A program made the translations under genes and the position numbers. The notes under the pieces are model-generated. The model searched no databases, was not told where the DNA came from, and saw only the letters and a list, made by a program, of their open reading frames with translations. Shown one piece after another: positions 4,224 to 23,081 of a stretch of DNA of 64,000 nucleotides (its first letter is position 1; each line of letters starts with the position of its first letter). Source of the DNA: Microbacteriaceae bacterium (lineage in GTDB: Bacteria > Actinomycetota > Actinomycetes > Actinomycetales > Microbacteriaceae); NCBI GenBank assembly GCA_027491295.1, contig JAIXWK010000002.1:58032-122031 (forward strand). The letters are read 5' to 3'.

Positions 4224-4323
4224 GAATTGACCCCTACTTCTTTGTGGTGGATGAAGACTAAAGCATTTTCTATCACGTTATGAATAGAAATGCTACAAAA
4301 TGCTAACGGAGGTTCCGATCGGC

Positions 4324-4352
4324 TTGACACCAGAAAGAAGAAGAACTAGCTT
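4324..4352 (+). promoter_or_regulatory. Candidate sigma-A promoter of the glpD-like/glpK-like pair
   Basis: TTGACA (4324-4329), 17-nt spacer, TAGCTT (4347-4352). Confidence 0.55.
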
Positions 4353-4505
4353 GATAGGAATGTCCATGCAAGTAGTGGATAATTATTTTCTCAGGGCAGA
4401 GAAGGGGTCTGGGTGGGTAATCGCAGTGGTGCGCGCCTGACTCAGGCTCGAAAGAAAAGTCCGACTCTCTTTCCAAAACAAATAACAGCGAAGGATACTT
4501 TGTAG

Positions 4506-6134
4506 ATGCCAAACGCAAAAAAGACTGCAACGCCAGCCAAAGAGTATGACCTGGTCGTCATCGGAGCCGGCATCAACGGCCTTGGCATCGCTAAAGATGC
4601 CGCTGAGCGCGGTATGTCAGTTGTGCTGGTTGAGCAAGAGGACATTTGCTTTGGAGTATCGGCCTGGTCTGGACGCCTAATTCACGGCGGGCTTCGCTAC
4701 TTGGAACACATGGATCTGCCACTGGTTCGCGAATCACTCAAGGAGCGCGAGCGACTATTCAAGCTGGCTCCTCACCTGGTAAAGCCAGTCGATTTGATCA
4801 TGCCCTTCTACAAGAAAAATCGCAGGCCGGCTTGGATGATTTGGGCTGGCATGATGGCCTACGACTTCCTCTCTATAGATAAGACCGTTCCGTGGCACCG
4901 AATCCTGGGCAAAGCCAAAGTGAAGGATCGCTTCAAAGGTATGTCTGACTCAGGACTCGGCGGAGCAGCTGTGTTTATTGACGGCCAGGTTGAGTATGCC
5001 GAGCGCCTCTGCGTCGAACTCGCACTCGGTGCCAGTGAGCTAGGCGGCGAGATAAGAATCCACGAGAAGGTTGTGGGATTTGAATTCAGCAACGGCCGGG
5101 TGGTTGGAGTCCAGACCCTCAACTCCGAAGGTAAGACTTCGTCAATCAAGGCTAAAGCTGTAATCAATGCCGCTGGGCCATGGGTTGACCGCGTCAACGA
5201 CAACCTCAAGCAGGGAAACACCAAGCGGCTGATCGGAGGCACAAAGGGAAGCCACATTATTGTTGACCCTTTCCCAGGTGCACCAAATGACGTGATCTAC
5301 TACGAATCCCAGGCTGACGGCAGACTGGTTTTGGTTATTCCTTGGATGGGTCGTTACTTGATCGGCACCACCGACACCAAATTTGACCTTGAACCGGATG
5401 CCGCCCGCGCAGACCAAACCGAAATCGAGTATCTACTGCGCGAAGTGAATGCACTGATTCCAGAGTCTGGTCTAACCCAAAAAGACATCCTCTACACCTA
5501 CAGCGGAGTTCGTCCGCTACCATACGCTCCTGGAGTTTCGGAGTGGAAGATCCCTAGAAGCCACATCGTTCTGGACCACACCAGCGACTCGCTACCTGGT
5601 CTTTACTCGGTGGTCGGCGGGAAGCTAACCACCTTCCGTCAACTCGCGGAGGATGCGGTGACCCTGGTTTTGAAGAAAGAATTTGGTGAGCGTCGTGCCT
5701 GCGTGAACAAGCAGAAGATGTTCCCTGGAGCTCAAGACACAGACTGGTCTGCATTGAAAGCAGAGCTGGTCGCTGGAGGGGCCATAAAGCCAGATACCGC
5801 CGAGCGCTTGGTCGCGCTCTATGGATGCAGGGCTCGACTGGTTGCAAGTTACGTGAAAAAAGATTCAAAATTGGCGGAGCGTTTTGACCCTAGATCACCG
5901 GCAATTGCTGCTGAGCTAGTGGTAGCGACCCAAGACGAATTTGCCCAAACCCTGACCGACATCTACGCCAGAAGAATTCTGCTGGCATTCGAACCGGGAC
6001 ACGGGCTCGAGTCGGTCAAAAGAGCGAGCGAGATTGTCGGCAAGCTAAATGGTTGGGACAAAAAGTTAGTTGCGCAGAACATCAAGGAATATCAGGTGTG
6101 GCTAGATCACCTGAAGGTTCCTAAGGTGGCCTAA
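4506..6134 (+). CDS. glpD: FAD-dependent glycerol-3-phosphate/polyol-phosphate dehydrogenase (GlpD/EryB family), copy 1
   Basis: Motifs GAGING, SGRLIHGGLRYLE, KGSHI, IGTTD, YSGVRPL and GGKLTTFR. Confidence 0.85.
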   Translation: MPNAKKTATPAKEYDLVVIGAGINGLGIAKDAAERGMSVVLVEQEDICFGVSAWSGRLIHGGLRYLEHMDLPLVRESLKERERLFKLAPHLVKPVDLIMPFYKKNRRPAWMIWAGMMAYDFLSIDKTVPWHRILGKAKVKDRFKGMSDSGLGGAAVFIDGQVEYAERLCVELALGASELGGEIRIHEKVVGFEFSNGRVVGVQTLNSEGKTSSIKAKAVINAAGPWVDRVNDNLKQGNTKRLIGGTKGSHIIVDPFPGAPNDVIYYESQADGRLVLVIPWMGRYLIGTTDTKFDLEPDAARADQTEIEYLLREVNALIPESGLTQKDILYTYSGVRPLPYAPGVSEWKIPRSHIVLDHTSDSLPGLYSVVGGKLTTFRQLAEDAVTLVLKKEFGERRACVNKQKMFPGAQDTDWSALKAELVAGGAIKPDTAERLVALYGCRARLVASYVKKDSKLAERFDPRSPAIAAELVVATQDEFAQTLTDIYARRILLAFEPGHGLESVKRASEIVGKLNGWDKKLVAQNIKEYQVWLDHLKVPKVA

Positions 6135-6161: not shown

Positions 6162-7667
6162 ATGCAGAAATACGTTCTGGCCCTAGACGAGGGATCAAGC
6201 AGCGCCCGTGCTGTGCTTTTCGATGAGTCAGGACTGGCAGTCAGCGACCACGCCGTGCCAATTCATGCAATCTTCCCAAAGCCAGGCTGGGTAGAGCTAG
6301 ATCCGGAAGCCGTTTGGCAGGCAATGCTGGAGGCTATCCACCAGGCCATGCGAAAGATTGGCGCTACAGCCGAGAACATTCTGGTGGTTGGCATAACCAC
6401 TCACCGCGAAACGGCAATCATCTGGGACCGTAAGACCGGAAAACCGCTTTACAACGCCGTCATGTGGAGCTCTAAGCAAACGGATGAAATTGTTGAGGGC
6501 TGGAGACAGAGCGGACTAGATGGTCTGATTCGCGAACGCACCGGAGTGAGAAACGACTCCTACTTCTCCGCTGGAAAAATTGCTTGGCTTTGCCAAAATG
6601 TCGACGGATTACTGCAGCGTGCTGATAAATCGGAGCTGGCCTTCGGAACCATGGACAGCTGGTTGTTATTCAAGCTCACCGGGGGCCAAAGACACGCTAC
6701 CGACTTCAGTGCTGCCTCTAGGACCGCGCTGCTCAACATCAACACCGGTAGCTGGGACCTTGAGCTGGCACAGACCCTGGGGATTCCAACTGCCCTACTT
6801 CCAACAGTTTTAGAGTCGGATGACTATTTCGGTGATGTAGCTCCTGGCATTCTTCCTGGACCAATGCGTGGATCAGTTCCAATTCGCGGCATTCTTGGCG
6901 ATCAGCAGGCTGGACTATTTGGACAAGCGTGTTTGAAACCAGGGGATGCAAAGAACACCTACGGGACCGCAGGAGTATTGACTGTCAACGTTGGCAACAA
7001 GCCGCAACTAATGCCAGGAATGACCTCAAGTATTGCCTGGGGATTAGAGGACAAGCTCACCTATGAAGCCGAGGGCGTGGTTTTCTTCAGTGGAAAAACA
7101 ATGCAGTGGCTCAGGGATAACTTAGGGCTGATGGCGTCTTCGCTCGAAGCGGAAGCGCTCGCCAGGTCTGTCAGCGATAACGGCGGGGTGTATTTGGTGC
7201 CAGCGTTCAACGGGCTTTGCGATCCATATTGGGATAGAGACGTGCGAGGCTCAATCATGGGATTGCAGCTGGACACCACCAAGGCGCACCTGGTTCGAGC
7301 CGGGCTTGAATCGATGGCCTATCAGACCGCAGACAACGTTGACGCGTTGATTAGCGGCGGCGTGGATGTGCCGGCTCTAAAGATTGATGGTGGAGCGGTA
7401 AAGAACGATTGGCTCTGCCAGTTCCAAGCAGATGTGCTTGGAATCCCAGTTCTCAGGCCAACCGAACCCGAGAGAACCGCATTGGGAGTTGCTCACATCG
7501 CAGGGGCCGCGGTTGGTGCCTGGAGCTTAGAGTCAATTTCCGACCGATGGGAACTGGATAGAGAATTCGTACCCGCAATCTCCGCCGATCAGCGTGCTGA
7601 ACTTATGGCCGGATGGAATGAAGCGGTTGCCGCAACCAGGTCTCTGCCACCGAGGCGCAAGGGTTAG
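6162..7667 (+). CDS. glpK: FGGY carbohydrate kinase, glycerol-kinase-like
   Basis: Motifs ALDEGSSS, ITTHRET, GDQQAGLFG, KNTYGT, PAFNGL and DGGAVKN. The substrate may not be glycerol (DEG where GlpK has DQG). Confidence 0.75.
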   Translation: MQKYVLALDEGSSSARAVLFDESGLAVSDHAVPIHAIFPKPGWVELDPEAVWQAMLEAIHQAMRKIGATAENILVVGITTHRETAIIWDRKTGKPLYNAVMWSSKQTDEIVEGWRQSGLDGLIRERTGVRNDSYFSAGKIAWLCQNVDGLLQRADKSELAFGTMDSWLLFKLTGGQRHATDFSAASRTALLNINTGSWDLELAQTLGIPTALLPTVLESDDYFGDVAPGILPGPMRGSVPIRGILGDQQAGLFGQACLKPGDAKNTYGTAGVLTVNVGNKPQLMPGMTSSIAWGLEDKLTYEAEGVVFFSGKTMQWLRDNLGLMASSLEAEALARSVSDNGGVYLVPAFNGLCDPYWDRDVRGSIMGLQLDTTKAHLVRAGLESMAYQTADNVDALISGGVDVPALKIDGGAVKNDWLCQFQADVLGIPVLRPTEPERTALGVAHIAGAAVGAWSLESISDRWELDREFVPAISADQRAELMAGWNEAVAATRSLPPRRKG

Positions 7668-7669
7668 TT

Positions 7670-8392
7670 TTAGGAGTATTCCTGGCGGAAAAGCTGGTTA
7701 CCGAAAGCCCTGATTTGATCGCTGAGGAAGACCTTTACCAGGTTCGGGTCAAAGCTGCCGATTTCCAGATCTAAAGCTCCAACGGTTGCTGGATCCCACT
7801 CAAAGTTGAGTGCCTGATTAACTTCGCTCAATACTTCTCTAACCTCGTCAGCTTCTGACAACTGCAAAACTCCGCTGATCAGCCTCGCGCCGCTTGAAGC
7901 TCGCTGGGCGGTTCCGATCAATTTGGTTTTGTTTCGAGCATTCACGCTGTATGTGCCCGGGCAGAACTCCCCCGGAACAGGTCCTAGTCGAGCATCCACG
8001 GCAATTGATCGAAGAGTGCCAACCAAAGCCAGTCCAAACTCTTTGAAGATGAATGAGCTCTGGTAACGCAAACGAGGCTCTGGCAAGACCAAGTCAAAGA
8101 CCAAAGAGTTCTCGTTGTAGACCACGGTTCTGCCACCGGTGGTTCGAAGCACTGGCTGGTATCCCATGTCCTGCGCTATTTCCCAGGCACGATCGAATCC
8201 CGGCATCAGAGCCTCGCGCTTACTGAAAGCAACAGTTCGTGCCGGGGTGTAAACCCTGGTCTGTGGTCCAAACTCGGGATCCTTGGCAACTTCTCGAATC
8301 ATCAAAAGCGAGTAATTCATTTGAACCTGCGCGGACACAGAGTTCTGTTCCGAGGTTTCTACCAAATCAAAAGGGCCGTTAGGACTGAGCAT
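7670..8392 (-). CDS. Lipoate-protein ligase family (BPL_LplA_LipB)
   Basis: Motifs RTTGGRTV, GEFCPG and KLIGTAQR; last gene of the lipoyl-dependent operon. Confidence 0.8.
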   Translation of the reverse strand: MLSPNGPFDLVETSEQNSVSAQVQMNYSLLMIREVAKDPEFGPQTRVYTPARTVAFSKREALMPGFDRAWEIAQDMGYQPVLRTTGGRTVVYNENSLVFDLVLPEPRLRYQSSFIFKEFGLALVGTLRSIAVDARLGPVPGEFCPGTYSVNARNKTKLIGTAQRASSGARLISGVLQLSEADEVREVLSEVNQALNFEWDPATVGALDLEIGSFDPNLVKVFLSDQIRAFGNQLFRQEYS

Positions 8393-8412
8393 TGATCATT
8401 TCTCCTGAAAGA

Positions 8413-9090
8413 TCACTCAGCTGAAATTGGGCTCTGAAGCAGTTCAGCAAAGTGCTGCAAGAACTTAGCTCCAGTCGCACCGTCGATAGCCCGGTGATCG
8501 CAAGTAAGGGTGAATTCCGCAATTGGAAGCCAGGTATCTTGGCCGTCCACTTTCCTCAGCCGCTGCTCGGTAGAGCCCACCGCCAGAATGGCAGCCTGTG
8601 GCACGTTGAGGATTGCGTCAAATCTGCGGATTCCCATCATCCCGAGGTTGGAGATGGTGAAGGTTCCAAGTGTGATGTCAGGTCGGGTCAGTGTTCCGGT
8701 TCTGGCGCGCTCCACAATCTCTGCTCGGCGAGCGGCAATGCCTTGAAGTGAAAGAGAGTCGGCGTCATGAATTACTGGGACCGTCAGGCCCTGGTCGGTT
8801 GCAACCGCAAGTCCGATATTCGCCTGGGCAAAGGGAATCACTCCCTCTTCATCCACGTGCACGTTCAGCTCAGGGACAGCTGCAAGGGTGCGACCGGAAA
8901 CATACACCAACAGGTCGGTTAGGTTTGCACCGGGGCTGACCTGCTTTATCTTGAGAGCTTCAGTCATGTCGACCTCGACGGTCAGGTGAAAAGCTGGCAC
9001 CTGCCAGGCGGCAATCATGTGACGAGCTGCGGTTCTTCGAATTCCTTTGAATGGAATCTTTTCACCGGTCTCTGTCTCTACTGCGGTCAT
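8413..9090 (-). CDS. 2-oxoacid dehydrogenase E2 acyltransferase, catalytic domain only
   Basis: Motifs NIGLAVAT..GL.VPVI, GTFTISNLG and DHRAIDG (catalytic His/Asp). At 225 aa it has no lipoyl or E3-binding domain. Confidence 0.9.
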   Translation of the reverse strand: MTAVETETGEKIPFKGIRRTAARHMIAAWQVPAFHLTVEVDMTEALKIKQVSPGANLTDLLVYVSGRTLAAVPELNVHVDEEGVIPFAQANIGLAVATDQGLTVPVIHDADSLSLQGIAARRAEIVERARTGTLTRPDITLGTFTISNLGMMGIRRFDAILNVPQAAILAVGSTEQRLRKVDGQDTWLPIAEFTLTCDHRAIDGATGAKFLQHFAELLQSPISAE

Positions 9091-9938
9091 GTTAGGGCCG
9101 GAGCCTTTCCTGCGCAGCCGTAGTCCTGCATTTTCTGGATGGTGGCTTCAATCATGCGGCGACGGCCTTCGTCCATTGCCTCTTCTAGCTGGCGGTCACC
9201 CTTGCTGAAGGTGTCTTCTATGCCGGATCGGAATGCGTGCCTAAGGTCAGTGTCGGCATTTAGCTTGTGAACTCCGGCGGAGATAGCCTGCCTGAGCTCG
9301 TCAACAGGAACACCAGAGGCTCCGTGTAGCACCAGCGGAATGTTGGTTGCCTCTCGGATCTGGTTTACCAGGTCGATAGCCAGCGGCTGGGGTTTGAGGT
9401 TGGTGACACCGTGCATCACGCCGGCAGAAATCGCCAATAGGTCAACACCGGTCTTGGCGACAAACTCTTCAGCCTGTTCGACCTTGGTGTAAAAGTCAGG
9501 CCAGTGGATTGAGTCAGCAGCGTCAGGAATCTGTCCAAGCTCGGCTTCAACTGGAATACCGAAGGAGTGGGCGACCTCGACTACCTGCTTTGTCTTTTCA
9601 ATATTCTCCGCAAATGGCAGGTGAGAGCCGTCGAACATAATCGAATCAAAACCAAGCTTGATTGCCTCGAAAACCTCATCGTAGGTTCCGTGATCAAGGT
9701 GGATTGGGGCCACTGCCTCAGACTTATCGCGCTCGCGCAAGGTCATGTAGAAGGCCTCGGCAAGGCCCATGTGTGGCACAACTGCGCGGCCAACCTGCAA
9801 GAAAACCGGGGCGTTTGCCCGCTCCGCTGCTCTGATTAGGGCTTGGGTGGTTTCTGGATTGTGCATGTTGAAACCGCCGATTGCGTATCCCCCGGCTTGA
9901 GCGGCTTGGATCAAGCCGATTATATCAATCTTGGACAT
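9087..9938 (-). CDS. Class II (metal-dependent) ketose-bisphosphate aldolase family
   Basis: Motifs IHLDH, SIMFDGS, VEAELG, MHG and LVLHGASG. Confidence 0.9.
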   Translation of the reverse strand: MSKIDIIGLIQAAQAGGYAIGGFNMHNPETTQALIRAAERANAPVFLQVGRAVVPHMGLAEAFYMTLRERDKSEAVAPIHLDHGTYDEVFEAIKLGFDSIMFDGSHLPFAENIEKTKQVVEVAHSFGIPVEAELGQIPDAADSIHWPDFYTKVEQAEEFVAKTGVDLLAISAGVMHGVTNLKPQPLAIDLVNQIREATNIPLVLHGASGVPVDELRQAISAGVHKLNADTDLRHAFRSGIEDTFSKGDRQLEEAMDEGRRRMIEATIQKMQDYGCAGKAPALT

Positions 9939-9972
9939 GTTGCTTTTCCTATACTCGTTTTCTTATTGCCGA

Positions 9973-10212
9973 TTAGTTCGTTTCGATGATTGCGACCACG
10001 GTGCGGACCTCTACGGCCTCGCCCTCAGGAACCAGAATCTCCACCAGGGTTCCGGTTGCCGGAGATTCCAAAACCTCTTCGACCTTCTCCGCTTCGACCT
10101 CTGCCAGCGGCTCATCCTCAACTACGGAGTCACCAACTTTCTTCAGCCACTGGATGATCGATCCCTCGCTCATTCCCATGCCCCACTGTGGGAGCAGAAC
10201 TTCAACTCTCAT
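9973..10212 (-). CDS. Stand-alone lipoyl (biotin/lipoyl attachment) domain
   Basis: 79 aa: LPQWGMGMSEG, W.KKVGD.V, EVEAEKV (lipoyl Lys) and ESPATG. Confidence 0.9.
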   Translation of the reverse strand: MRVEVLLPQWGMGMSEGSIIQWLKKVGDSVVEDEPLAEVEAEKVEEVLESPATGTLVEILVPEGEAVEVRTVVAIIETN

Positions 10213-10229
10213 TTACTAGCTCCTTCTGA

Positions 10230-11231
10230 TTAGCGCAGTCCCGCTACCTTGCGGATGGCGTCTGCGATGGTTATTCGGTTTGGGTACATTTGCTTCTCCA
10301 GCGCTGGGCTGAATGGAATCTGCATGTCAGGTGCCGTCACGCGGATGATTGGCGCCTTCAGTGCGTCAAAGATCTCCTCTGACACGATTGCGCTGATCTC
10401 GCCAGCTGCACCACAGGTGCGGTGTGCCGGTTCTGCCACGACAAGACGGCCGGTCTTGGAAACCGACTCTAGAATCGCCCTGGTGTCCATTGGAACAAGG
10501 GTTCGAGGGTCGATAACCTCAACCGATACTCCCTCTGCAGCCATCGCATCGGCTGCTGCCACTGCCTCTGGTACCGATGAGGAGATTGCAACCACGGTGA
10601 CATCTGTGCCCTCTCGAGCGATGCGAGCCTTGCCAAACGGAATTCGATATTCTTCGTCGCTAACCTCTTCTTTGCTGCCCCAAAGCAAGCAAGCTTCAAA
10701 GGTCAAGACCGGGTCATCAGAATCAATTGCGTAGCGCAGCAACCCCTTGGCATCCGATGGCGAAGATGGTGCGATGATCTTCAGTCCCGGAACGTTCATA
10801 AACATTGGGTATGGACGATCTGAGTGGTGCGCCCCGGTGTTTAGCCCGTAGAACATTGCAGAGCGGAAAACAACCGGCATTGATGCCTGGCCTCCAAACA
10901 TGTAGCGGTTCTTTGCCACCTGGTTCACGAACTGATCCATGGCCATGTAGAGGAAGCTCGAGTAGGAAAGATCAACGATTGGACGCAATCCGGTCATTGC
11001 CGCGCCGGCGGCAAACCCAACGATGGCCTCCTCGGAGATTGGAGTGTTTCGGATTCGATCGCGGCCGTACATCTGAAGAAAATCACCTTTGTCGGCGCGG
11101 CTCTTGCCACCTCCGGTGGTGCCGTAAACATTTGCCTCAACGTCCTCACCGATGATGATGACTCGCTCGTCGGCGTCCATCGCCTCGCGCTGGGCTGCAC
11201 CGATAGCGCCCAAGTAACTCATCAAGCTCAT
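10230..11231 (-). CDS. ThDP-dependent dehydrogenase E1 beta subunit (AcoB/PdhB-like)
   Basis: Motifs IGEDV, NTPISE, HHS..P, EVIDPRTL.P and IRVTAPD. Confidence 0.9.
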   Translation of the reverse strand: MSLMSYLGAIGAAQREAMDADERVIIIGEDVEANVYGTTGGGKSRADKGDFLQMYGRDRIRNTPISEEAIVGFAAGAAMTGLRPIVDLSYSSFLYMAMDQFVNQVAKNRYMFGGQASMPVVFRSAMFYGLNTGAHHSDRPYPMFMNVPGLKIIAPSSPSDAKGLLRYAIDSDDPVLTFEACLLWGSKEEVSDEEYRIPFGKARIAREGTDVTVVAISSSVPEAVAAADAMAAEGVSVEVIDPRTLVPMDTRAILESVSKTGRLVVAEPAHRTCGAAGEISAIVSEEIFDALKAPIIRVTAPDMQIPFSPALEKQMYPNRITIADAIRKVAGLR

Positions 11232-12217
11232 GCGAACTGCTCCTCTTTGTCGGTGTAGAGATCTGCAAATGCGGTCTCTGGCTCTGGGTATGGGCTCTCG
11301 TCGGTGAAACGAACTGCCTCGTCCACCTCGGCTAGCACCTCTGCTTCAAGGGCATCAAGTTCTTCAGCCGTAAAGTGACCCTCGGCAATTAGGTGGTTTC
11401 GGAACAGCACAATCGGGTCACGCTTGAGCCACTGCTCACGTTCTTCTGGGTCTCGATAGTCGGTGCCGATTCTGAGGCCCTCGGAGTGCTCATTGAAGCG
11501 ATAGGTAACCACTTCAATTAGAGATGGTCCCTCGCCTGCCCTGGCTCGAGCTGCAGCCTCAGATACCGCATTGAAAACTTCCAACACGTCCTGACCGTTC
11601 TCGACCCTGACTCCAAAGATGCCAAAGCCAGCGGCACGATCCGCGATTACACCTGAGGTGACGGTGTGGGCCGGGGTGCTCAAGGCGTACTGGTTGTTCT
11701 CGCACAAGAAAATAACCGGGAGCTTCCATACGCCAGCCATGTTGATGGACTCGTAGAGCACACCTTGGTTGGCCGCACCATCACCGAAGAAGGCCAGTGA
11801 AACGTGACTCTTTTTCAATACTGATGCCGATAGCGCTGCACCGGCTGCAATCGGAATTGACGAACCGACAATTCCAGATTCACCCAGGCTGCCGACACTG
11901 AAATCCGCTAGGTGAAGCGATCCACCCTTGCCCTTGCAAACGCCAGTTGCCTTACCTACAAGCTCTGCCATCAGTGGACCCAGTGGGGAACCCTTACCAA
12001 TCGGGTGTCCGTGGCTGCGGTGGTTACCGGTCATGTAATCCTCATCGCGAAGCGCCATGGTTGCGCCTACCACCTGGGCCTCTTGGCCAATGCTGGTGTG
12101 AACGGTTCCGGGGATGTGACCGCGCTTAACCATCTTTGAGGCGCGCTCGTCGAAGTAGCGGATGCGCAGCATTCGACGCTGCATTTCCAGCATCTGATCC
12201 TTAGTTGGTGCTGCCAT
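11228..12217 (-). CDS. ThDP-dependent dehydrogenase E1 alpha subunit (AcoA/PdhA-like)
   Basis: Motifs HTSIGQEA, NHRSHGH, GGSLH, the ThDP motif GDGAANQG...ENNQY, and HSEG. Start placed at ATG 12217, after GAAAGG. Confidence 0.9.
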   Translation of the reverse strand: MAAPTKDQMLEMQRRMLRIRYFDERASKMVKRGHIPGTVHTSIGQEAQVVGATMALRDEDYMTGNHRSHGHPIGKGSPLGPLMAELVGKATGVCKGKGGSLHLADFSVGSLGESGIVGSSIPIAAGAALSASVLKKSHVSLAFFGDGAANQGVLYESINMAGVWKLPVIFLCENNQYALSTPAHTVTSGVIADRAAGFGIFGVRVENGQDVLEVFNAVSEAAARARAGEGPSLIEVVTYRFNEHSEGLRIGTDYRDPEEREQWLKRDPIVLFRNHLIAEGHFTAEELDALEAEVLAEVDEAVRFTDESPYPEPETAFADLYTDKEEQFA

Positions 12218-12294
12218 TGAACTGCCTTTCGCTTCCTGCTTAATCATAATTATTCACTTCTTGTTTTATTATTCTACACATCCGCAAATTTTTT

Positions 12295-13140
12295 TCAACA
12301 ATTTCCCACCGAGGTGTTTTGGATGGGCAAAAGTTCGTCAATTCTCCTCAGGACAAATGTGGGTGTGATGCCGGTTTTGACCGGGTCATAGACCAATCCT
12401 TGGCTCTCTCCGGTGAGCACCAGGGCGGAGTGAATTCCAGCATTTACCGCCATCTTTATATCCGTGGTTGGTCGGTCGCCGACCATGATGGTTCGCTCAG
12501 GGGAGGCAGCAAGTCTTTGCATTGCGACATCGATCATGATCTGATCTGGCTTACCCATGTTGAAACTGCACTTCACTCCCGTGGTCGCCTCGATGGCCGC
12601 GACCACTCCAGCGGCATCCGGCTCGCCGTTGCCATTCGGAAACGGGCAGTATCGATCTGGGTTAGTGGTAATCAACTCGCCCCTACCGTGCTTCCAGAGC
12701 GTATCGAAAGCAATCTGCAGCTTCCGGTAGTGAAAGTCATGGTCATAACTTGCAATCACGATGTCGATCTCAGCCGGATTGTCACTGATCTCGATACCTG
12801 CCTCTTCTAGGGCGGCAATAAGTGGTGGGTCTGAGATTGGAAACACTTTGGCTCCGGGGCGATTGGCCTGAAGCCATCCCACGGTCGAAATGATTGTGTT
12901 GAGGATCTCATCGAGCTCAACTTCGATTCCAAGTCTTCGCAACTTGTCCACATACATCTGCGGGCTCTTGGTTGGGTTATTGCTCAAGAACACTCGCTGG
13001 CTTCCGCGGGCCCGAAGCGAATCAAGTAGCTCGCGAGCTCCGGGCAATAGCTCTTCGCCGAGGTAAATGGTTCCGTCTAGATCAAACAGGTAGGCGTCAT
13101 AAAAGTCTTCGGGTCTATCTCCAACTTTATCCACGCTCAT
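12295..13140 (-). CDS. HAD-IIA (NagD/AraL-like) sugar-phosphate phosphatase
   Basis: Motifs FDLDGT, SNNP, TNPD, GKP and VGDRPTTDI. Confidence 0.9.
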   Translation of the reverse strand: MSVDKVGDRPEDFYDAYLFDLDGTIYLGEELLPGARELLDSLRARGSQRVFLSNNPTKSPQMYVDKLRRLGIEVELDEILNTIISTVGWLQANRPGAKVFPISDPPLIAALEEAGIEISDNPAEIDIVIASYDHDFHYRKLQIAFDTLWKHGRGELITTNPDRYCPFPNGNGEPDAAGVVAAIEATTGVKCSFNMGKPDQIMIDVAMQRLAASPERTIMVGDRPTTDIKMAVNAGIHSALVLTGESQGLVYDPVKTGITPTFVLRRIDELLPIQNTSVGNC

Positions 13141-13142
13141 TT

Positions 13143-14639
13143 CTACAGCTCCTGAATTGCAGAGAAGGTTGATTTCAACGCCGGGTATAGCGACTTGTAA
13201 ACCTCGAAGTAGCGGTCGTAGCGGGCAGCATTGTCTGGGTTGGGTAGAAACTCTTGACTAAAGCCGGACATTTTTGCAGAGGCGTCTGGGATCGATTCAT
13301 ACACGCCAAGTGCTGCGAAGCCGAGCATTGCAGCGCCTAGCGCAGTGGCCTCTTGGGACCGAGCGATTGCTATCGGAATGCGCAGATTATCAGCGAGAAT
13401 CTGACACCAGAGCGCGCTCTTAGAGCCACCACCCATTGTGATGAAGCGCTCAACCGGTTGACGAATGGTGGCACTCGCAGTTTCGATGCAGAGCCGCAAT
13501 TCAAAAGCGATACCCTCCAAGATTGAGCGATACAGGTGCTCATTTCCATGGATTCCCGAGAAGCCAACTATCGAACCGCGGGCATTTTGGTCCCAGTAGG
13601 GAGTTAGCGCACCATTCCAGTAGGGCAGGGTAAACAACCCCTCACTACCAATTGGGACCTCAAGTGCCTTGGACTCCCAGTATTGTTCCGGGGCCAATCC
13701 CATGCTGTTCTCGGGCTGGCTTATGTGAGTCTTGAACCAATTCACCATGTAGGTGCCGGCACCGACAAAAAACTCGTAGTTGTAACTGCCAGGAACGGTC
13801 CCGGACATCGCCCGATAGGCAAAGCTTGGCTTGTAGTCATCCGAGTAGATTCCGGCAATCAAACCGGTGCCGAGGTTGAGATAACCGGTTCCCGGGGCTG
13901 CAACTCCTGCACCCAAACCAGCGCACTGGCCATCGCCGCCGCCTGAAATCAAAGGTAGTTCTAGCGGTAAACCGAGCGCCTTGCTCACCTCTGGCAGAAG
14001 GGTCGCAATCACAGTTCCGGGCACACAAAGCTCCGGGAAGACATCATCTGACAGCTGCAGGGTCCTGAGGATCTCCGGACTGTAGTCCATGGATTCGAGG
14101 TCGACTACTCCCAGTGGATCAGCACTTGCGGTCGAGGTGGCGAACATTCCAGTTAGCTGAAGCGACAGGTAGGCGTGCACATCTGCCACTCGGCTGATCT
14201 TCGCAAACACCGCTGGCTCGTTGTCCCTGATCCAAAGCAACTTATAAAACGCAGGGGTGGGGTTGGCTGGCTTGCCGGTGAGGGTGTGAATTCGGCTGGT
14301 TCCAAAACGCTTGACCTGATCGTGGGCCCTGGTGTCAAGCCAAAGCATGGCAGGTCGCAGTGGCTCATCATTCTCATCTAGGCAGGCGAAGCTTTCACGC
14401 TGGTGGGTGAGCACCAGGGCCTTTATCTTGGTTGCATCGACGCCTTTGACCGCAGCCGCAATAGCTGCACTTGTGGCAGTCCACCAGGCCTTAGGGTCTT
14501 GCTCTCCCCAGCCCTCATTGGGAATGCTGAGTGGTATTTCCTGTCGGCCTTCGCTCAGCTGACGGCCGCTCACATCCCAGACAATTGCCTTGGCAGCAGT
14601 GGTTGAGCAGTCAACCGAGATGACTAGCTGTTCGCTCAT
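13143..14639 (-). CDS. FGGY pentulose/xylulokinase-like carbohydrate kinase
   Basis: Motifs VDCSTTAAK, HQRES, GGDGQCAGLG, LGTG and GGGSKS. Confidence 0.85.
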   Translation of the reverse strand: MSEQLVISVDCSTTAAKAIVWDVSGRQLSEGRQEIPLSIPNEGWGEQDPKAWWTATSAAIAAAVKGVDATKIKALVLTHQRESFACLDENDEPLRPAMLWLDTRAHDQVKRFGTSRIHTLTGKPANPTPAFYKLLWIRDNEPAVFAKISRVADVHAYLSLQLTGMFATSTASADPLGVVDLESMDYSPEILRTLQLSDDVFPELCVPGTVIATLLPEVSKALGLPLELPLISGGGDGQCAGLGAGVAAPGTGYLNLGTGLIAGIYSDDYKPSFAYRAMSGTVPGSYNYEFFVGAGTYMVNWFKTHISQPENSMGLAPEQYWESKALEVPIGSEGLFTLPYWNGALTPYWDQNARGSIVGFSGIHGNEHLYRSILEGIAFELRLCIETASATIRQPVERFITMGGGSKSALWCQILADNLRIPIAIARSQEATALGAAMLGFAALGVYESIPDASAKMSGFSQEFLPNPDNAARYDRYFEVYKSLYPALKSTFSAIQEL

Positions 14640-16078
14640 GCAGTCACCTGGGCTATCGCCAAATCAGTGAGCTCCAAGACTCTTTCCCAGTCGGATTTTT
14701 CCCATCTGCCACAAAGCGCAAGCAGGTCCACCGCGGTAAATCGATTGCGCATCAGGTGGCAGTTTGCGACCGACCACTGCCAAATCTCTTCGGTCACCCA
14801 CGGCTCAAGATCTGCATAGGTCATCGGAGCACCGGATACCAGCAGCCCCTGCGCCAAAGCCTCTGGTATTGGTGCGATTGCCGCAAGCTTGCTCGGATCA
14901 ATCTGCCAGGCCTTTAGTTGGGCAACGATGCTTGGCTGCAGGGCCTGGACCTTCTCCAGCTTCTTGGTCACATCAGAAATACATTCGCTGGTGAGCGATC
15001 CAGATTTATCGATGCCGGCAAACGCCGTGGTTACCTTTTGAGCAAATAAGTCGATGTCGACTGCCTGAAGTTCTAGCTCGGGAAGAATCTCCAATAGGTA
15101 GCGCCAGGCCATTGCGGATACCAGCGATGCCACACCAACCTGAGCGCCGTGAAGTCCGACCTGTTTCGCAGATGCAACCGCTCTCATATCTAATAGATGG
15201 CTGATTAGGTGCTCGGTGCCAGACAGGCAAGCGGTCGTTCCCGCAATACCGGTTCCAATGCCGCGGATAGCTAGGACTTTTGTCAACTGCTCAACTGCAC
15301 CCAGGTTCCCAATGGCCAGACCATTGCCCCACTCAGCTGGGTCGCCCGCAAATGCCAACAGCAAATCGCGAGGGGTCTCGTGAAAACTTGAATCAAGGCC
15401 CAATCGGCTGGCGAGCTCCCAGTCAGCCGGTGCCGTGTATAGCGACAGCGCCTCACCAAAGCCGGCAAGGTTTAGCTCCAGAGGAGCGCTCTGAATTACC
15501 TCGAGATCGGCAAGAACCACCTCTGGCCAGTTGGAGGCAATGGTCCGCTTCACACCATTTTTTAAGACCACCGAAACGTTGTCGGTGTAGCCATCCACCG
15601 AGGCCGCGGTCTGAATAGAAATCAACTGCGTGCCGGGATTCCTATTGCAAGCAACCTTGGCAATGTCACTAATGGTTCCGCCACCTAAGCCAACCACAAG
15701 GTCATGTCCCGGCACCGCTGCGCTGGCTAGGTCCAAAGTCTTGTCGTCAACTTTTACCACTCCGTCTGCGGTGAGGGTAAGCCAAGTCACTTTGAAGTAT
15801 TTGGAAAGGGTCTCATGCACGTAAGCCTTGAAGTCACGCTGCCCTTTGAAGATTGTCACGTCGTCGGTAATGAAAAGAACCTTCGCTCCAACCGGCTCAA
15901 TCATTTGCTCACGCAGGATTTCGGCGGCTGCGAATACCAATAACTCGGAGGCGTTCCATGAGATCTCTAGCTGCTTGATGCCAAGGGGAACCAGTCGCTC
16001 CGGCTGTGGCGCGGAGGCAATAACGGACTTGATGCGTGACAAGTCAGTTGGATCACTCACATTGGAAAAGCTAGACAT
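14636..16078 (-). CDS. Glycerol-1-phosphate dehydrogenase-like (AraM/EgsA; DHQS/Fe-ADH superfamily) NAD(P)-dependent oxidoreductase
   Basis: Motifs GLGGGTISDIAK, TAASVDGYT, SGTEHLISH and LHGAQVG. Start placed at ATG 16078. Confidence 0.8.
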   Translation of the reverse strand: MSSFSNVSDPTDLSRIKSVIASAPQPERLVPLGIKQLEISWNASELLVFAAAEILREQMIEPVGAKVLFITDDVTIFKGQRDFKAYVHETLSKYFKVTWLTLTADGVVKVDDKTLDLASAAVPGHDLVVGLGGGTISDIAKVACNRNPGTQLISIQTAASVDGYTDNVSVVLKNGVKRTIASNWPEVVLADLEVIQSAPLELNLAGFGEALSLYTAPADWELASRLGLDSSFHETPRDLLLAFAGDPAEWGNGLAIGNLGAVEQLTKVLAIRGIGTGIAGTTACLSGTEHLISHLLDMRAVASAKQVGLHGAQVGVASLVSAMAWRYLLEILPELELQAVDIDLFAQKVTTAFAGIDKSGSLTSECISDVTKKLEKVQALQPSIVAQLKAWQIDPSKLAAIAPIPEALAQGLLVSGAPMTYADLEPWVTEEIWQWSVANCHLMRNRFTAVDLLALCGRWEKSDWERVLELTDLAIAQVTA

Positions 16079-16105
16079 CAGCAACCTCACCTTCGAGAAC
16101 TAATC

Positions 16106-16139
16106 TGCATGTTTATTCATTACTAGAATAAACTATGCA
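16106..16139. promoter_or_regulatory. Palindromic candidate operator just downstream of a TTGACA-18-TACTCT promoter (minus strand, 16177-16148)
   Basis: TGCAT-GTTTATTC-N7-GAATAAAC-T-ATGCA in the divergent intergenic region. Confidence 0.55.
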
Positions 16140-16189
16140 TTGATACTAGAGTAAAAAGAAACAGGAAGCGTTGTCAAGGCGGTTTTGAA

Positions 16190-17734
16190 ATGTCAAAGTC
16201 AAAGGATTCAACCCTCTACGATGTGGCGATTATCGGCGGTGGGATTAACGGAGCGGTTTCCGCTGCCCGGCTTTCCGCGTCCGGCCTGAAGGTCCTGCTA
16301 CTGGAGCGAGGCGACTACGCCTCCACCACCTCCCAAGAGTCGAGCAATCTGGTGTGGGGTGGCATCAAGTACCTCCAGAGCTACGAATTTGGTTTGGTTT
16401 ACAAACTCTGCCGATCTCGCAACCAGCTCATGCGCTGCTACCCAAACCGCATTCGCGAAATTGGCTTTTTGGCATCGATCGGACCCACCTCACCATTTGG
16501 CAGAGTTCTTGGCCTGTTTGGCACCATGGCGTACTGGGTAATCGGCGGCTTTGCGACAAAAATGCCGAAGCTCTACCTAGCTAATCGCGCCACTGTTATT
16601 GAGCCGAGCTTCATTCCAGGCCGAGCAGCGCTTGAGTATTTTGACGCGGAGCTTCCGGACAACGACAGCAGATTTGTTTGGGACTTCATTTCTACCGCCA
16701 AGCGATTTGGCGCTCAGGTTTGCAACTACTCTGAGCTAGTTGAGGCCCAGTTCGATGGTGAGTGGAATCTGCTTGCCCAAGATGCCCACACCGCTGAAAA
16801 GATCGAATACCGAGCCAAGAGCGTAGTGAACGCGACTGGTCCTTTCGCAGCCGGCGTCTCAGAGCTTCTGGGAGTAACTCCTAAATCCAGGCTCGTGCTA
16901 TCCAAGGGCGTTCACCTAATTGTGCCCAAGATCCACAACTCTGATCGGGTCCTAGCTTTTTGGGACGAAGAGGGTCGAATGTTCTATGTGCTGCCAATGG
17001 GCGACCGGAGCATGATTGGCACAACTGACACCAGAGTCGATAGTGAGACCAAGGAAGTTACCCAAGAAGATCGTGATTTCCTTCTTCGTCAGATCAACAA
17101 AGAAATGAACCTAGAGCGGCCACTAGTCGAATCCGACATCATCTCGGAGCGTTGCGGAGTCAGACCATTGGTTGCCGGTAGCTCTAAGGGAGACACATCG
17201 GATTGGCACAAGCTATCCAGAAAGCACGTTATTGAAACCGCAATCGAGAAGCGGGTCGTAACGGTGTTCGGCGGGAAGCTAACCGACTGCCTCAATGTGG
17301 GCGACGAGGTGTTCGCCGCGGTGAAGAAGTTCCAGCTCGGTAAATTCGGCGTCGCTGAGAACTGGTACGGCGAAGAGTCCAAGGAGTCTCAGCAAAGCTT
17401 TGAGAAAGCGGCAAGGCCGGTGTTTGGAAGCGGGCCAGCTGCTGAGCTGATTGTTTCCGAGTTGTGGCGCCGTCATGGGAGCAGCGCCCTTGAGATTCTG
17501 GAGCTTGCCCGAACAAACGAAGAACTGCGTGAGCCGATCTTCGAAGGACTTGGTATCTGCGGTGCTGAGGTTAGGTATGTTTTGGAACATGAGCAGGTCA
17601 AGACAGCCGATGACCTACTAAGGCGCAGGTTGCCGATTGCGATGTGTCGCTCGGCTAGCGAAATTGCGCAAAACATCAAGCTGAACCAACTGCTACCATA
17701 TGCAGCATCGACGTCCCCGAAGGAATTGGCTTAA
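16190..17734 (+). CDS. glpD: FAD-dependent glycerol-3-phosphate dehydrogenase, copy 2
   Basis: Motifs GGGINGA, SSNLVWGGIKYL, KGVHL, IGTTD, CGVRPL and GGKLT. The stop overlaps the glpX start (TAATG). Confidence 0.85.
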   Translation: MSKSKDSTLYDVAIIGGGINGAVSAARLSASGLKVLLLERGDYASTTSQESSNLVWGGIKYLQSYEFGLVYKLCRSRNQLMRCYPNRIREIGFLASIGPTSPFGRVLGLFGTMAYWVIGGFATKMPKLYLANRATVIEPSFIPGRAALEYFDAELPDNDSRFVWDFISTAKRFGAQVCNYSELVEAQFDGEWNLLAQDAHTAEKIEYRAKSVVNATGPFAAGVSELLGVTPKSRLVLSKGVHLIVPKIHNSDRVLAFWDEEGRMFYVLPMGDRSMIGTTDTRVDSETKEVTQEDRDFLLRQINKEMNLERPLVESDIISERCGVRPLVAGSSKGDTSDWHKLSRKHVIETAIEKRVVTVFGGKLTDCLNVGDEVFAAVKKFQLGKFGVAENWYGEESKESQQSFEKAARPVFGSGPAAELIVSELWRRHGSSALEILELARTNEELREPIFEGLGICGAEVRYVLEHEQVKTADDLLRRRLPIAMCRSASEIAQNIKLNQLLPYAASTSPKELA

Positions 17735-18708
17735 TGGCTCCAGATAGAGAGCTAGTAGCAGATCGAAACTTGGCCATGGAGTTGGTGCGCGCCACCGAGG
17801 CCGCAGCAATCAGGGCATTTCCACTAATTGGCAAAGGTGACAAAAATGCCGCAGATGGTGCGGCTGTAGATGCCATGCGGGCATTTTTAGGAACCGTTGA
17901 TTTTGAGGGTCTGGTAGTAATCGGCGAGGGTGAAAAAGATAATGCCCCAATGCTTTTCAATGGGGAGATTGTTGGCACCGGGCACGGACCAAAAGTGGAC
18001 ATCGCGGTGGACCCAATTGATGGGACTTCCCTCACAGCCGCTGGTCGCATGAATGCCATCTCCGTAATCGCCGTCTCGGATCGCGGAACAATGCTCGATG
18101 CTTCGTCGGTTTACCGGATGCAGAAGTTTGTTACCGGCGAGCCAGGAGTTGGCGTTTGTGACATGTCAATGTCGATCAAGGACAACCTCACCGAGTACGC
18201 ACGCGCTGCAAAGAAAGATGTGACGGAGCTACTGGTTGCTGTGCTGGACCGGGATTACAACGAAGATGTCATTGACGAGGTGCGCTCAGCAGGGGCCGCG
18301 ACCAGGCTGTTGCGAGATGGAGACGTTGCTGGCGGCATCCAAGCTGCTCGGAGTGAATCGCGCATTGATATGTGCATTGGGAAAGGCGGCTCTCCCGAGG
18401 GAATTGTGACCGCGTGTGGCGTGCGTGCTCTGGGTGGTTTCATGCAGGGGAAGCTCGCCCCAAGGGATGAGTCAGAAATCCTTGCGGGCAATAAAGCTGG
18501 CCTCAAGTTTGACTACGTCTACCAGATGGATGAGCTAGTGAGCTCTGACAACACATTCTTTGTCGCAACCGGCGTCACCGATGGTCCACTGGTGTCAGGG
18601 GTTCGCAAAAAGGGAAACCTAATCCTCGCTGAGTCAATTGTGATCCGTGGCAAGACCGGAACTGTTCGAAAGATCTTTGCCGAGTATCAAGCAGCACGCT
18701 GGCTCTGA
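17734..18708 (+). CDS. glpX: Class II fructose-1,6-bisphosphatase
   Basis: Motifs ELVRATEAAA, VVIGEGEKDNAPML, VDPIDGT, DGDV, SPEG and ATGVTDG. Confidence 0.95.
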   Translation: MAPDRELVADRNLAMELVRATEAAAIRAFPLIGKGDKNAADGAAVDAMRAFLGTVDFEGLVVIGEGEKDNAPMLFNGEIVGTGHGPKVDIAVDPIDGTSLTAAGRMNAISVIAVSDRGTMLDASSVYRMQKFVTGEPGVGVCDMSMSIKDNLTEYARAAKKDVTELLVAVLDRDYNEDVIDEVRSAGAATRLLRDGDVAGGIQAARSESRIDMCIGKGGSPEGIVTACGVRALGGFMQGKLAPRDESEILAGNKAGLKFDYVYQMDELVSSDNTFFVATGVTDGPLVSGVRKKGNLILAESIVIRGKTGTVRKIFAEYQAARWL

Positions 18709-19549: not shown

Positions 19550-19681
19550 CTCTAGCTCCATTACTGAAAGGCGTATTTGAAACACTATTGCAAGAAATTG
19601 CTGTCCGCTCCGCATTGGCTGAAAGTTGAACTCGCAACCCGGCGAACTTGCCTATGATGAGAAGTAAGCCAAGGAGCTGAA

Positions 19682-23061: not shown

Positions 23062-23081
23062 TGAATTGCTAGGGGAAGACA

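Follow-up and report, generated by a model that had tools for sequence, protein, structure and literature searches.

Acetoin dehydrogenase (AcoA/AcoB/AcoC/AcoL) is composed of a heterotetramer-type thiamine diphosphate (ThDP)-dependent E1 alpha-beta, a lipoyl carrier, an acyltransferase to coenzyme A (CoA) and a dihydrolipoyl dehydrogenase (E3), and its substrate is an alpha-hydroxyketone and not a 2-oxoacid. The erythritol pathway of Brucella and Rhizobium comprises the kinase EryA, the GlpD-like dehydrogenase EryB, the SorC regulator EryD and the CUT2 transporter EryEFG. Here we describe a gene cluster that would work most like acetoin dehydrogenase joined to the opening steps of the Brucella erythritol pathway. 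The cluster lies in a 64,000-nucleotide stretch of DNA, referred to as the window, from a freshwater Microbacteriaceae bacterium (assembly GCA_027491295.1, contig JAIXWK010000002.1, positions 58,032–122,031 of the forward strand), and DNA of the window occurs in many freshwater metagenomes. The cluster probably serves, under the control of a SorC regulator, the catabolism of a small polyol that is imported and has probably four or five carbons (C4–C5), with tetritols and pentitols as candidates. Specifically, we give a probability of about one half to a polyol catabolic route in which E1 cleaves a ketose phosphate and the two-carbon (C2) acyl fragment passes through a free lipoyl protein (Lip) and a bare E2 catalytic domain (E2c) to CoA.

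The cluster is like acetoin dehydrogenase in all of the components named above. Unlike that enzyme, it has an E2 that is split into the 79-residue Lip and a bare catalytic domain without an E1/E3-binding domain, its E1 beta carries a unique GK[ST]R insertion, its regulator is of the SorC type, and the whole unit is surrounded by genes for kinases and ABC transporters of the sugar type, for polyol-phosphate dehydrogenases and for an aldolase. With the erythritol pathway it shares an FGGY kinase followed by a GlpD-like flavin adenine dinucleotide (FAD)-dependent dehydrogenase for a polyol phosphate, a SorC regulator and a CUT2 ABC transporter, but it lacks the isomerases EryC, EryH and EryI and has the E1/lipoyl/E2 system and a class II aldolase instead. 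The cluster falls outside the pyruvate dehydrogenase (PDH) equivalogs, the canonical E2s, the glycine cleavage H-protein (GcvH) family, the Lsr system and the Nap/Qnc enzymes, since the defining features of each are absent.

The last of these systems deserves comparison because of its chemistry. In the biosynthesis of naphthyridinomycin and quinocarcin, NapB/NapD and QncN/QncL use xylulose 5-phosphate as the source of a C2 unit, which is passed on as a thioester, according to the summary of Peng et al. (2012, PNAS) in PMC7570522. The resemblance is in mechanism only: a ThDP enzyme takes a C2 unit from a ketose phosphate, but the Nap/Qnc enzyme is a two-component transketolase that serves an acyl carrier protein (ACP) and nonribosomal peptide synthetase (NRPS) biosynthesis, whereas the cluster has a PDH-type E1, presumably CoA as the acceptor, and a catabolic context. 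A role of the cluster as a biosynthetic C2 (glycolyl) donor for a secondary-metabolite assembly line would use the same chemistry, which that summary documents for tetrahydroisoquinoline antibiotics. However, we consider this role very improbable: no ACP, NRPS or polyketide synthase was found in the window or in any related locus, E1 is of the PDH type and not a split transketolase, and the neighbouring genes encode transporters, kinases and a catabolic-type regulator. An earlier sequence-based reading of the window, referred to as the original prediction, had proposed an oxidative cleavage of a ketose phosphate with ThDP and lipoyl, and NapB/NapD is a forerunner of such chemistry. The C2 transfer by NapB/NapD reportedly proceeds via a lipoyl group, and to our knowledge enzymes of this type are the only "oxidative ketolases" that act on sugar phosphates.

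Protein families were assigned with Pfam and NCBIfam models, and the bit scores were set against the curated cut-offs. Nine open reading frames (ORFs), all on the minus strand, form the operon (7670–8392, 8413–9090, 9087–9938, 9973–10212, 10230–11231, 11228–12247, 12295–13140, 13143–14639 and 14636–16090), with spacings of −4, −4, −4, 2, 17, 20, 34 and 47 nt. The last ORF has an in-frame ATG at 16078, which is where the original prediction placed the end. That reading of nine co-oriented, touching or overlapping genes agrees with the ORF list, and the families it named were recovered for all nine ORFs with catalytic motifs intact where checked, while none of the nine proteins attains an NCBIfam equivalog cut-off. 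Its limits were too narrow, as a SorC regulator, a GlpD-like dehydrogenase, a GlpK-derived kinase, an epoxide hydrolase and a sugar-type ABC binding protein also belong to the cluster.

In an alignment-based scan, the E1 clade was present in 217 species-level genomes of Actinomycetota and some Alphaproteobacteria. The actinobacterial E1 alpha orthologues come from Arthrobacter, Pseudarthrobacter, Microbacterium, Cryobacterium, Sinomonas, Kocuria, Nakamurella, Nocardioides, Geodermatophilus, Streptomyces and Rubrobacter, and those beyond this phylum from Hyphomicrobiales and Rhodobacterales. The identity of E1 alpha is 69–83% across the orthologues of Actinomycetota and Alphaproteobacteria, and the closest gene (99% identity) is in a metagenome-assembled genome from a pond (L081; labels of this kind denote loci mapped around E1 orthologues in other genomes). 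Gene order was mapped in ~100 loci of the two phyla, in which ORFs were clustered using a filter based on GC content at third codon positions (GC3) against shadow ORFs of high-GC genomes. Because the same genes lie beside orthologous E1 in these loci, their clustering is far beyond chance, and the proposed gene set is kept as a neighbourhood. The usual layout is [BP10-ATPase-permease]-G1PDH-like-FGGY2-HAD-E1a-E1b-Lip-(GlpD1-FGGY1)-Ald-E2c-(E3)-Lpl, plus SorC, where BP10 is a binding protein, G1PDH glycerol-1-phosphate dehydrogenase, Ald the aldolase and Lpl a lipoyl ligase family protein. A second transporter operon, with the order EH-BPbig-permease-ATPase-permease-PepD-like M20 dipeptidase (EH, epoxide hydrolase; BPbig, large binding protein), is present in ~30 loci, and Ald lies beside E1 in 75 of ~95. 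A megablast search of the operon against plasmids gave no near-identical copy of its DNA, and the PGAP names on two plasmid copies of the cluster (Rubrobacter and Shinella) are generic throughout. In line with the original prediction, no paper describing this exact gene set was found in the full-text literature, which is absence of evidence only, as many subscription papers were beyond the reach of the search.

E1 alpha (11228–12247, minus strand; 339 aa), the ThDP-binding subunit of the PDH/acetoin-dehydrogenase type, matches PF00676 (E1_dh) with 273 bits, and E1 beta (10230–11231, minus strand; 333 aa) matches PF02779 (Transket_pyr) and PF02780 (Transketolase_C). E1 alpha keeps the motif GDGAANQG...ENN and the His within YRFNEHSEG, while the residues that correspond to beta-Glu59 and beta-His128 in the Geobacillus enzyme (1w85_B) are conserved in E1 beta. 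The catalytic signatures checked in the proteins of the operon recur in 42–62 orthologues. Together the two subunits have the ThDP/Mg motif, the activating Glu and the catalytic His that define the alpha2beta2 ThDP E1 family. Their best named models are those of PDH, but E1 alpha scored 321 bits against TIGR03182 (PDH E1 alpha; cut-off 393.85) and E1 beta 298 bits against NF006667 (PDH; cut-off 321), so that both are below the equivalog level. None of the acetoin-specific E1 models in NCBIfam matched the E1 of the window. The identity is ~45% to ordinary plasmid-borne E1s and likewise to the acoB-like gene beside AcoC in L023.

The PDH matches, the presence of all 2-oxoacid E1 catalytic residues and the PGAP name of a more distant relative (H8, 55% identity; PDH E1 beta) would suit a pathway-dedicated pyruvate or hydroxypyruvate dehydrogenase that happens to be located among glycerol/polyol genes. 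Such an enzyme is improbable, and clearly so, in view of the scores under the PDH cut-offs and of the linkage to kinases, polyol-phosphate dehydrogenases and sugar transporters across phyla, which it leaves unexplained. Moreover, Actinomycetota normally use an AceE-type E1 for pyruvate. No 2-oxoacid-forming enzyme was found in any locus type among the ~100 loci, and the oxidoreductases of the cluster all act at the alcohol level. They are Fe-ADH-like and GlpD-like enzymes in the window, whereas L005, L012 and L106 have short-chain dehydrogenases/reductases (SDRs) and the Rubrobacter plasmid encodes a Zn-dependent dehydrogenase. Since no locus type encodes the formation of a 2-oxoacid, a hydroxyketone would be the natural substrate of E1, most likely a ketose phosphate. 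In this respect, the choice of a ketol over a 2-oxoacid in the original prediction is supported.

A feature of E1 beta bears on the phosphate. In the window, the insertion GGGKSRADKGD follows GEDVEANVYGTT. It consists of 9–10 residues, G(G)GK[S/T]Rxx(x)GD, directly after the GEDV...YGTTG segment, and is present in every cluster member, with GK[ST]R...GD invariant. No such insertion was found in outgroup E1 beta sequences or in the PDB references, and it is also missing from L033, whose E1 beta is 61–65% identical and whose locus has no sugar genes. The homologous post-strand loop of the Pyr domain of transketolase helps bind the substrate phosphate. Because of this contact in transketolase, it is plausible that the GK[ST]R insertion binds the phosphate of the substrate. 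The phosphorylated E1 substrate that had been proposed thus fits this basic, clade-specific element.

The second structural peculiarity is the split E2. E2c (8413–9090, minus strand; 225 aa) is a lone 2-oxoacid-dehydrogenase acyltransferase catalytic domain that matches PF00198 with 217 bits over residues 8–222, and its best NCBIfam matches are acetyltransferases. The motifs DHRxxDG, with the catalytic His/Asp, and [TS]xSNLG, with its Ser/Thr, are present in 55 of 55 orthologues (CDHRAIDG and TISNLG in the window copy). In the Pfam search E2c showed no lipoyl domain and no E3/E1-binding domain, PF02817 being found neither in E2c nor in Lip. Lip (9973–10212, minus strand; 79 aa) is a free lipoyl-domain protein of the E2 type (PF00364, Biotin_lipoyl, 69 bits), whose motif EAEKV contains a lysine that is invariant in 62 orthologues and is the predicted lipoylation site. 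The domain search thus agrees with the free lipoyl protein and bare E2 core of the original prediction: the catalytic and lipoyl domains, which a canonical E2 has in one polypeptide, are on separate proteins. In outgroups (Dehalococcoidia and others, 50–60% identity) the E2 is a single ORF of 430–480 aa, lipoyl-type at the N-terminus and with DHR at the C-terminus, and Lip is 46–57% identical to the N-terminus of these unsplit E2s.

The aldolase gene lies between the two halves of E2 in the window, as had been noted, but it is not the cause of the split. In L005 and L012, Lip adjoins E2c and the aldolase is absent, while in many other loci glpD1, FGGY1 and Ald all lie between Lip and E2c. Given the neighbouring halves in L005 and L012 and the fused E2 of the outgroups, E2 first lost its linker and binding domain and became two genes, between which other genes were inserted later; the split thus preceded the insertion of the aldolase.

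Like the H-protein of the glycine cleavage system, Lip is a small free lipoyl protein, and because no docking domain is present it would have to diffuse between separate enzymes. Lip differs from the H-protein in family: it belongs to the E2 lipoyl domains (PF00364), derived from an E2 N-terminus, and its matches were limited to PF00364 and E2-type NCBIfam models, with none to GcvH. Lpl (7670–8392, minus strand; 240 aa) is of the lipoyl/octanoyl-protein ligase or transferase family (PF21948, LplA-B_cat, 31.6 bits against a cut-off of 27). Its NCBIfam matches are weak (28–33 bits), the best being GcvH:protein octanoyl/lipoyl transferases of the LipM/LipL type, and its motifs RxxGG and K[LV]xGxAQR, with the conserved Lys, are kept in 42 orthologues. 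Lpl is probably dedicated to modifying the free lipoyl protein. A triad of E1a, E1b and free Lip (53% identity) without E2 was also observed on plasmid pBSY17_1 of Sphingobium sp. RAC03 (L150, 5646–13280), next to two SDRs, a cupin, an M24 peptidase and a pyrroloquinoline quinone (PQQ)-dependent dehydrogenase. Because this plasmid has one too, free lipoyl carriers beside E1 alpha-beta are a wider theme.

The absence of E3, which the original prediction had reported, holds for the window: neither a Pfam search of its larger ORFs nor tblastn with a sister-locus E3 revealed an E3 gene in the 64 kb. It does not hold for the family, as a dihydrolipoyl dehydrogenase gene (TIGR01350, 501 bits against 408.8) lies inside the operon between E2c and Lpl in L001, L083, L088, L095, L111 and L130. 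Because these six related genomes carry E3 in the operon, the missing E3 is a local feature and not a design principle.

Upstream of the E1 step, the cluster encodes two kinase/dehydrogenase pairs. The first consists of FGGY1 (6162–7667, plus strand) and GlpD1 (4506–6134, plus strand). FGGY1 is a glycerol-kinase-derived kinase with an altered substrate pocket, which exceeds the cut-off of the GlpK subfamily NF000756 (584 vs 498 bits) but not that of the GlpK equivalog TIGR01311 (560 bits, under 590), and is ~50% identical to true GlpKs. NQRET is changed to (T/S)HRET and GTGxF to GTAGV (Phe270 to Val) in 43 of 43 orthologues, and Tyr135 to Phe in 27 of these 43. The glycerol-binding residues of Escherichia coli GlpK we take to be Arg83, Glu84, Trp103, Tyr135, Asp245 and Phe270. 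FGGY1 is probably not a plain glycerol kinase, and the alteration of glycerol-pocket residues in all orthologues suggests a larger polyol as its substrate. GlpD1, a core member of the cluster found in ~68 loci and often located between Lip and Ald, is an FAD-dependent glycerol-3-phosphate-dehydrogenase-like protein with DAO and DAO_C domains (PRK12266, 355 bits vs 360). Among plasmid proteins it is 41% identical to actinobacterial GlpD-like and 35–37% to rhizobial sequences, values that do not separate a placement with EryB from one with GlpD.

The second pair is FGGY2 (13143–14639, minus strand), a xylulokinase-like kinase with FGGY_N and FGGY_C domains (XylB, 298 bits, under 380), and the G1PDH-like (AraM-like) enzyme (14636–16078, minus strand). 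The latter is a predicted metal-dependent polyol-phosphate dehydrogenase of the nicotinamide adenine dinucleotide (phosphate), NAD(P), type (Fe-ADH_2, 77 bits), with a length of 480 aa or, with a GTG start at 16090, 484 aa. It scored 125 bits against the glycerol-1-phosphate dehydrogenase model (cut-off 413) and is ~100 aa longer. The closest structures are G1P dehydrogenases (9h4x, 5fb3 and 4rgq), with which its motifs TAASVDG, GxEHLxSH and LHGAQVG align; they are kept in 61 orthologues and presumably hold the Asp/His/His metal ligands. The accessory HAD-IIA phosphatase (12295–13140, minus strand; TIGR01460, 122.9 vs 100.15 bits) is of the sugar-phosphate/phosphoglycolate type, its closest named families being PGP/PLP phosphatases and TIGR01457; it is present in about half of the loci and always adjoins FGGY2. 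In Bacillus subtilis, araB, araL and araM encode an FGGY kinase, a HAD-IIA phosphatase and a glycerol-1-phosphate dehydrogenase in one operon, and the same three families are adjacent in the cluster as G1PDH-FGGY2-HAD. This similarity is at the family level only (125 vs 413 bits for the G1PDH model), and the cluster has no arabinose genes. The substrates of GlpD-type and G1PDH-type enzymes are glycerol phosphates of opposite configuration, and both families oxidise the carbon adjacent to the phosphate ester.

Ald (9087–9938, minus strand) is a class II metal-dependent ketose-(bis)phosphate aldolase of type B (PF01116, 275 bits) and exceeds the cut-off of the TIGR00167 subfamily (234.6 vs 215.6 bits). 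The equivalog cut-offs for fructose-bisphosphate and tagatose-bisphosphate aldolases were not attained, and the closest structures are KbaY/ketose-bisphosphate aldolases (8q57 and 8q58).

In the proposed route, the two pairs, namely GlpK-derived FGGY1 with the FAD-dependent GlpD-like enzyme and XylB-like FGGY2 with the NAD(P)-dependent G1PDH-like enzyme, would each phosphorylate the polyol and oxidise a carbinol, so that stereoisomers would converge on one ketose phosphate. Such convergence by two pairs would be sensible if the polyol is meso or racemic, as an epoxide-derived diol would be. In E1, of the PDH/acetoin-dehydrogenase type, ThDP would attack the keto group and the adjacent C–C bond would be broken, as in acetoin dehydrogenase and transketolase. 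E1 would then reductively load the C2 acyl fragment onto Lip, E2c would hand it to CoA, and dihydrolipoyl dehydrogenase, encoded in the operon in sister genomes and presumably elsewhere in the genome of the window, would reoxidise the carrier, which Lpl would lipoylate. The class II aldolase would feed the aldehyde(-phosphate) remainder into triose/pentose-phosphate metabolism, with help from the HAD and GlpX phosphatases.

Variant loci are informative as to which enzymes precede E1. In L005, L012 and L106, E1ab-Lip-E2c is accompanied only by a GlpK-like kinase, SDRs and a polyol-type transporter, and the minimal variants have nothing besides E1ab-Lip-E2c(-Lpl) but a transporter, one or more dehydrogenases and a GlpK-like kinase. 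Their E1 alpha is ~80% identical to that of the window, which is no less than in other orthologues. Because these variants keep only a dehydrogenase and a kinase besides, E1 would act on the product of those two enzymes. L005 also carries a split transketolase, and on the Rubrobacter plasmid E1ab-Lip is found with the Zn-dependent dehydrogenase.

The same loci can be read in another way, in which E1ab/Lip/E2c is an acetoin-type dehydrogenase for a non-phosphorylated ketol (either acetoin formed from 2,3-butanediol or a free ketose, for instance erythrulose, xylulose or a 1-deoxyketose), and the kinases, GlpD-like enzyme and aldolase process only the released aldehyde, for example from glyceraldehyde through glycerol and glycerol 3-phosphate to dihydroxyacetone phosphate (DHAP). 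The SDR and Zn-dependent dehydrogenases of the variants and the Rubrobacter plasmid have good scores with the models for acetoin reductase/butanediol dehydrogenase and for GolD/DthD, the operon contains glpD/glpK-like genes, and canonical acoB-acoC adjoins the cluster in L023, all of which would suit this alternative. We nevertheless consider it unlikely. Phosphorylated polyols are the substrates of the families to which the G1PDH-like and GlpD-like enzymes belong, sugar phosphates are the typical signals of SorC regulators, FGGY1 does not look like a plain glycerol kinase, the basic insertion of E1 beta is left unexplained, and the cluster has no aldehyde dehydrogenase or reductase for acetaldehyde. 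A non-phosphorylated ketol, a 2-oxoacid and a biosynthetic C2 donor are thus all less likely than cleavage of a ketose phosphate.

Several points weigh against the cleavage of a ketose phosphate with transfer through Lip and E2c. The catalytic residues of E1 are identical to those of 2-oxoacid enzymes, and the sequence is therefore also compatible with a 2-oxoacid substrate. An ordinary ketose would yield glycolyl-CoA, and none of the genes in the cluster is an obvious candidate for its further metabolism. The scheme also gives no unique explanation for Ald, the HAD phosphatase, the epoxide hydrolase or the M20 peptidase of the PepD-like type. Finally, E2c is absent within 10 kb in the alphaproteobacterial loci L014, L018–L020, L023 and L028 and on the Rubrobacter plasmid. 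In L023 (a Paracoccaceae chromosome), a canonical acoB and an AcoC-type E2 with lipoyl, E3-binding and alpha/beta-hydrolase domains were observed at 36–1993, directly upstream of the E2c-less copy of the cluster, and this E2 might replace the missing acyltransferase.

The glycolyl-CoA problem would be sidestepped if the product were acetyl-CoA. In such a redox-neutral scheme, E1 cleaves a ketose 1-phosphate, the ThDP-bound C2 unit eliminates phosphate to give acetyl-ThDP by the logic of phosphoketolase, and reduced Lip shuttles the acetyl group to CoA without a stoichiometric need for E3. It would account for the absence of an E3-binding domain from Lip and E2c, the lack of E3 in most loci, the acetyltransferase-like character of E2c, the position of the basic insertion beside GEDV, a conserved loop in the Pyr domain, and the oxidation, by the GlpD and G1PDH families, of the carbon beside the phosphate ester. 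We judge it improbable, as it is a mechanistic proposal for which E1 alpha-beta enzymes offer no precedent, the His responsible for protonating the dithiolane in reductive acylation is conserved, and the E3 in the operons of six genomes suggests a redox cycle and argues somewhat against it. Its fullest form, in which an epoxide-derived polyol is converted to a ketose 1-phosphate, the phosphate-binding insertion of E1 assists cleavage, and Lip is a non-redox acetyl shuttle in a lipoyl-dependent, CoA-forming "phosphoketolase", is slightly more improbable still.

The epoxide in that scheme also has a place in the preferred route through a ketose phosphate and reductive loading of Lip. EH (1871–3139, minus strand) is a cytoplasmic microsomal-type epoxide hydrolase with EHN and Abhydrolase_1 domains. 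It scored 247 bits against the epoxide hydrolase structure 5f4z, has the features of its family with intact HGWP, GGDWG and GGHF motifs, and has no signal peptide. EH is 74–83% identical in loci of Actinomycetota and Rhodobacterales and was found in 28 loci, always adjoining BPbig. The substrate in the genome of the window is probably at least partly an epoxide, which EH would open in the cytoplasm to the polyol. BPbig (505–1668, minus strand; Peripla_BP_4, 119 bits) is a lipoprotein solute-binding protein of a monosaccharide/polyol-type (CUT2) ABC transporter, with the lipobox ...LTMAGC and 2rjo as the closest structure. It is followed by the start of an ABC permease gene that is cut by the window edge (1–300, minus strand; tblastn with the permease family of the cluster, 42% identity over 55 aa, 298–134), in accordance with the gene order EH-BPbig-perm-ATP in sister loci. 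The binding protein of the other transporter, BP10, resembles the polyol-binding proteins 4rs3, 4rsm and 5hko of Mycobacterium smegmatis. In one freshwater metatranscriptome, contigs 95–97% identical to the window showed transcription in situ, with a depth of 30 for BPbig (the maximum of the region), 6–12 for EH and 6–7.5 for E1a/E1b.

Other substrates were considered and not adopted. 2-Methyltetrols and isoprene epoxydiols fit the epoxide hydrolase and the stereo-convergence, but the enzymes could be mapped onto a route from them to central metabolites only with a DXR-type rearrangement, and none is encoded. For D-apiose or apiitol, the cleavage of apulose phosphate would give dihydroxyacetone (phosphate), which suits the glycerol-like module and the split transketolase of L005; the binding proteins of the cluster, however, are no closer to 5ibq, which we take to be the structure of an apiose-binding protein, than to ribose or polyol binders.

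The regulator (3258–4223, minus strand; PF04198, 164 bits) is of the SorC/DeoR type, which typically senses sugar phosphates, and is divergent from glpD1; it adjoins the E1 region in ~60 loci. In the original prediction it was likened to LsrR and phosphorylated autoinducer-2 (AI-2/DPD) was named as a candidate substrate. Lsr processing of AI-2 involves an FGGY kinase and a SorC-family regulator, which the cluster also has, and converts a phosphorylated C5 ketone to acetyl-CoA and DHAP. In the cluster, the cleavage chemistry is different, the regulator scored 181 bits on the B. subtilis-type DeoR model and 107 on LsrR (cut-off 486), both below cut-off, FGGY2 scored 298 bits on XylB and 180 on LsrK (cut-off 528), and neither LsrG nor LsrF was found in the annotated ORFs. 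AI-2/DPD was rejected on these grounds. An AT-rich inverted repeat was observed in each of the divergent promoter regions (4224–4505 and 16079–16189), one being AGCATTTTCTAT-N10-ATAGAAATGCT and the other TGCATGTTTATTC-N7-GAATAAACTATGCA. Their half-sites are loosely alike (GCAT-N-TT...), and they are possible candidate SorC operators. No 12-mer common to the intergenic regions was found, only these separate AT-rich inverted repeats, and a promoter/terminator scan gave fewer matches than in shuffled sequence.

Divergent from the operon, a second GlpD-like protein (GlpD2) and GlpX, a class II fructose/sedoheptulose bisphosphatase (TIGR00330, 334 vs 259 bits), are encoded at 16190–18708 (plus strand). 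They are linked to the cluster only in close relatives, with the same order in L081 and remnants in L001 and L088. Adjoining glpX is a gene of the HpcH/CitE-like acyl-CoA lyase family (18731–19615, minus strand), kept only in the closest relative L081; the lyase could act on the acyl-CoA product, and its linkage is weak. Other attached genes were observed at related loci. A BKACE-family (beta-keto acid cleavage enzyme) gene is attached in 13 loci (L006, L092, L112–L117, L131 and L140–L142; mostly Cryobacterium), and a beta-lactamase-like serine hydrolase is encoded between E2c and glpD1 in eight loci of Nocardioides, Kocuria and Streptomyces. The copy on the Shinella plasmid (L149; 4174–11040, and 28927 onward) carries lipA, a PfkB-type sugar kinase, a different, haloalkane-dehalogenase-like alpha/beta-hydrolase beside a non-homologous binding protein, and a glutathione-independent formaldehyde dehydrogenase just past a transposase.

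Elsewhere in the window, a mannitol-type phosphotransferase system operon (36058–39970, minus strand), with a mannitol dehydrogenase family enzyme, EIIA, EIIC and a DeoR regulator, is a second and conventional polyol system. A heliorhodopsin (20087–20890, minus strand; PF18761, 319 bits) and a type-1 bacteriorhodopsin-like protein (40780–41553, plus strand; PF01036, 127 bits) are also encoded, and the combination of these two kinds of rhodopsin is typical of Actinomycetota that live photoheterotrophically in fresh water. A small cluster at 21829–25356 (minus strand) encodes a protein for sulphur transport (PF04143), a tandem rhodanese and a membrane protein in which DUF2231 is joined to two cytochrome b5 domains. 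A giant ORF of at least 2104 aa (57679–63993, minus strand) runs to the end of the window and is probably a cell-surface protein, with one fibronectin type III domain as its sole Pfam match.

The cluster holds real potential for a new catabolic reaction. If the route through a ketose phosphate is true, a 2-oxoacid/acetoin-dehydrogenase module has been dismantled and rebuilt, with a free carrier, a bare E2 core and no docking domains, as the C–C-cleaving step of sugar-alcohol catabolism, and it would be a natural example of a minimal, diffusible lipoyl system. Chemistry documented so far only for a C2 donor in antibiotic biosynthesis would then provide a new entry route from polyols to acyl-CoA. 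A function would also be given to a cluster of more than 200 species-level genomes, whose transporter and epoxide hydrolase genes are transcribed in lakes and whose carriers are Actinomycetota associated with soil, plants, ice and fresh water, together with some Alphaproteobacteria. The tight link to the epoxide hydrolase raises the question of which hydrophilic epoxide or polyol these bacteria harvest.

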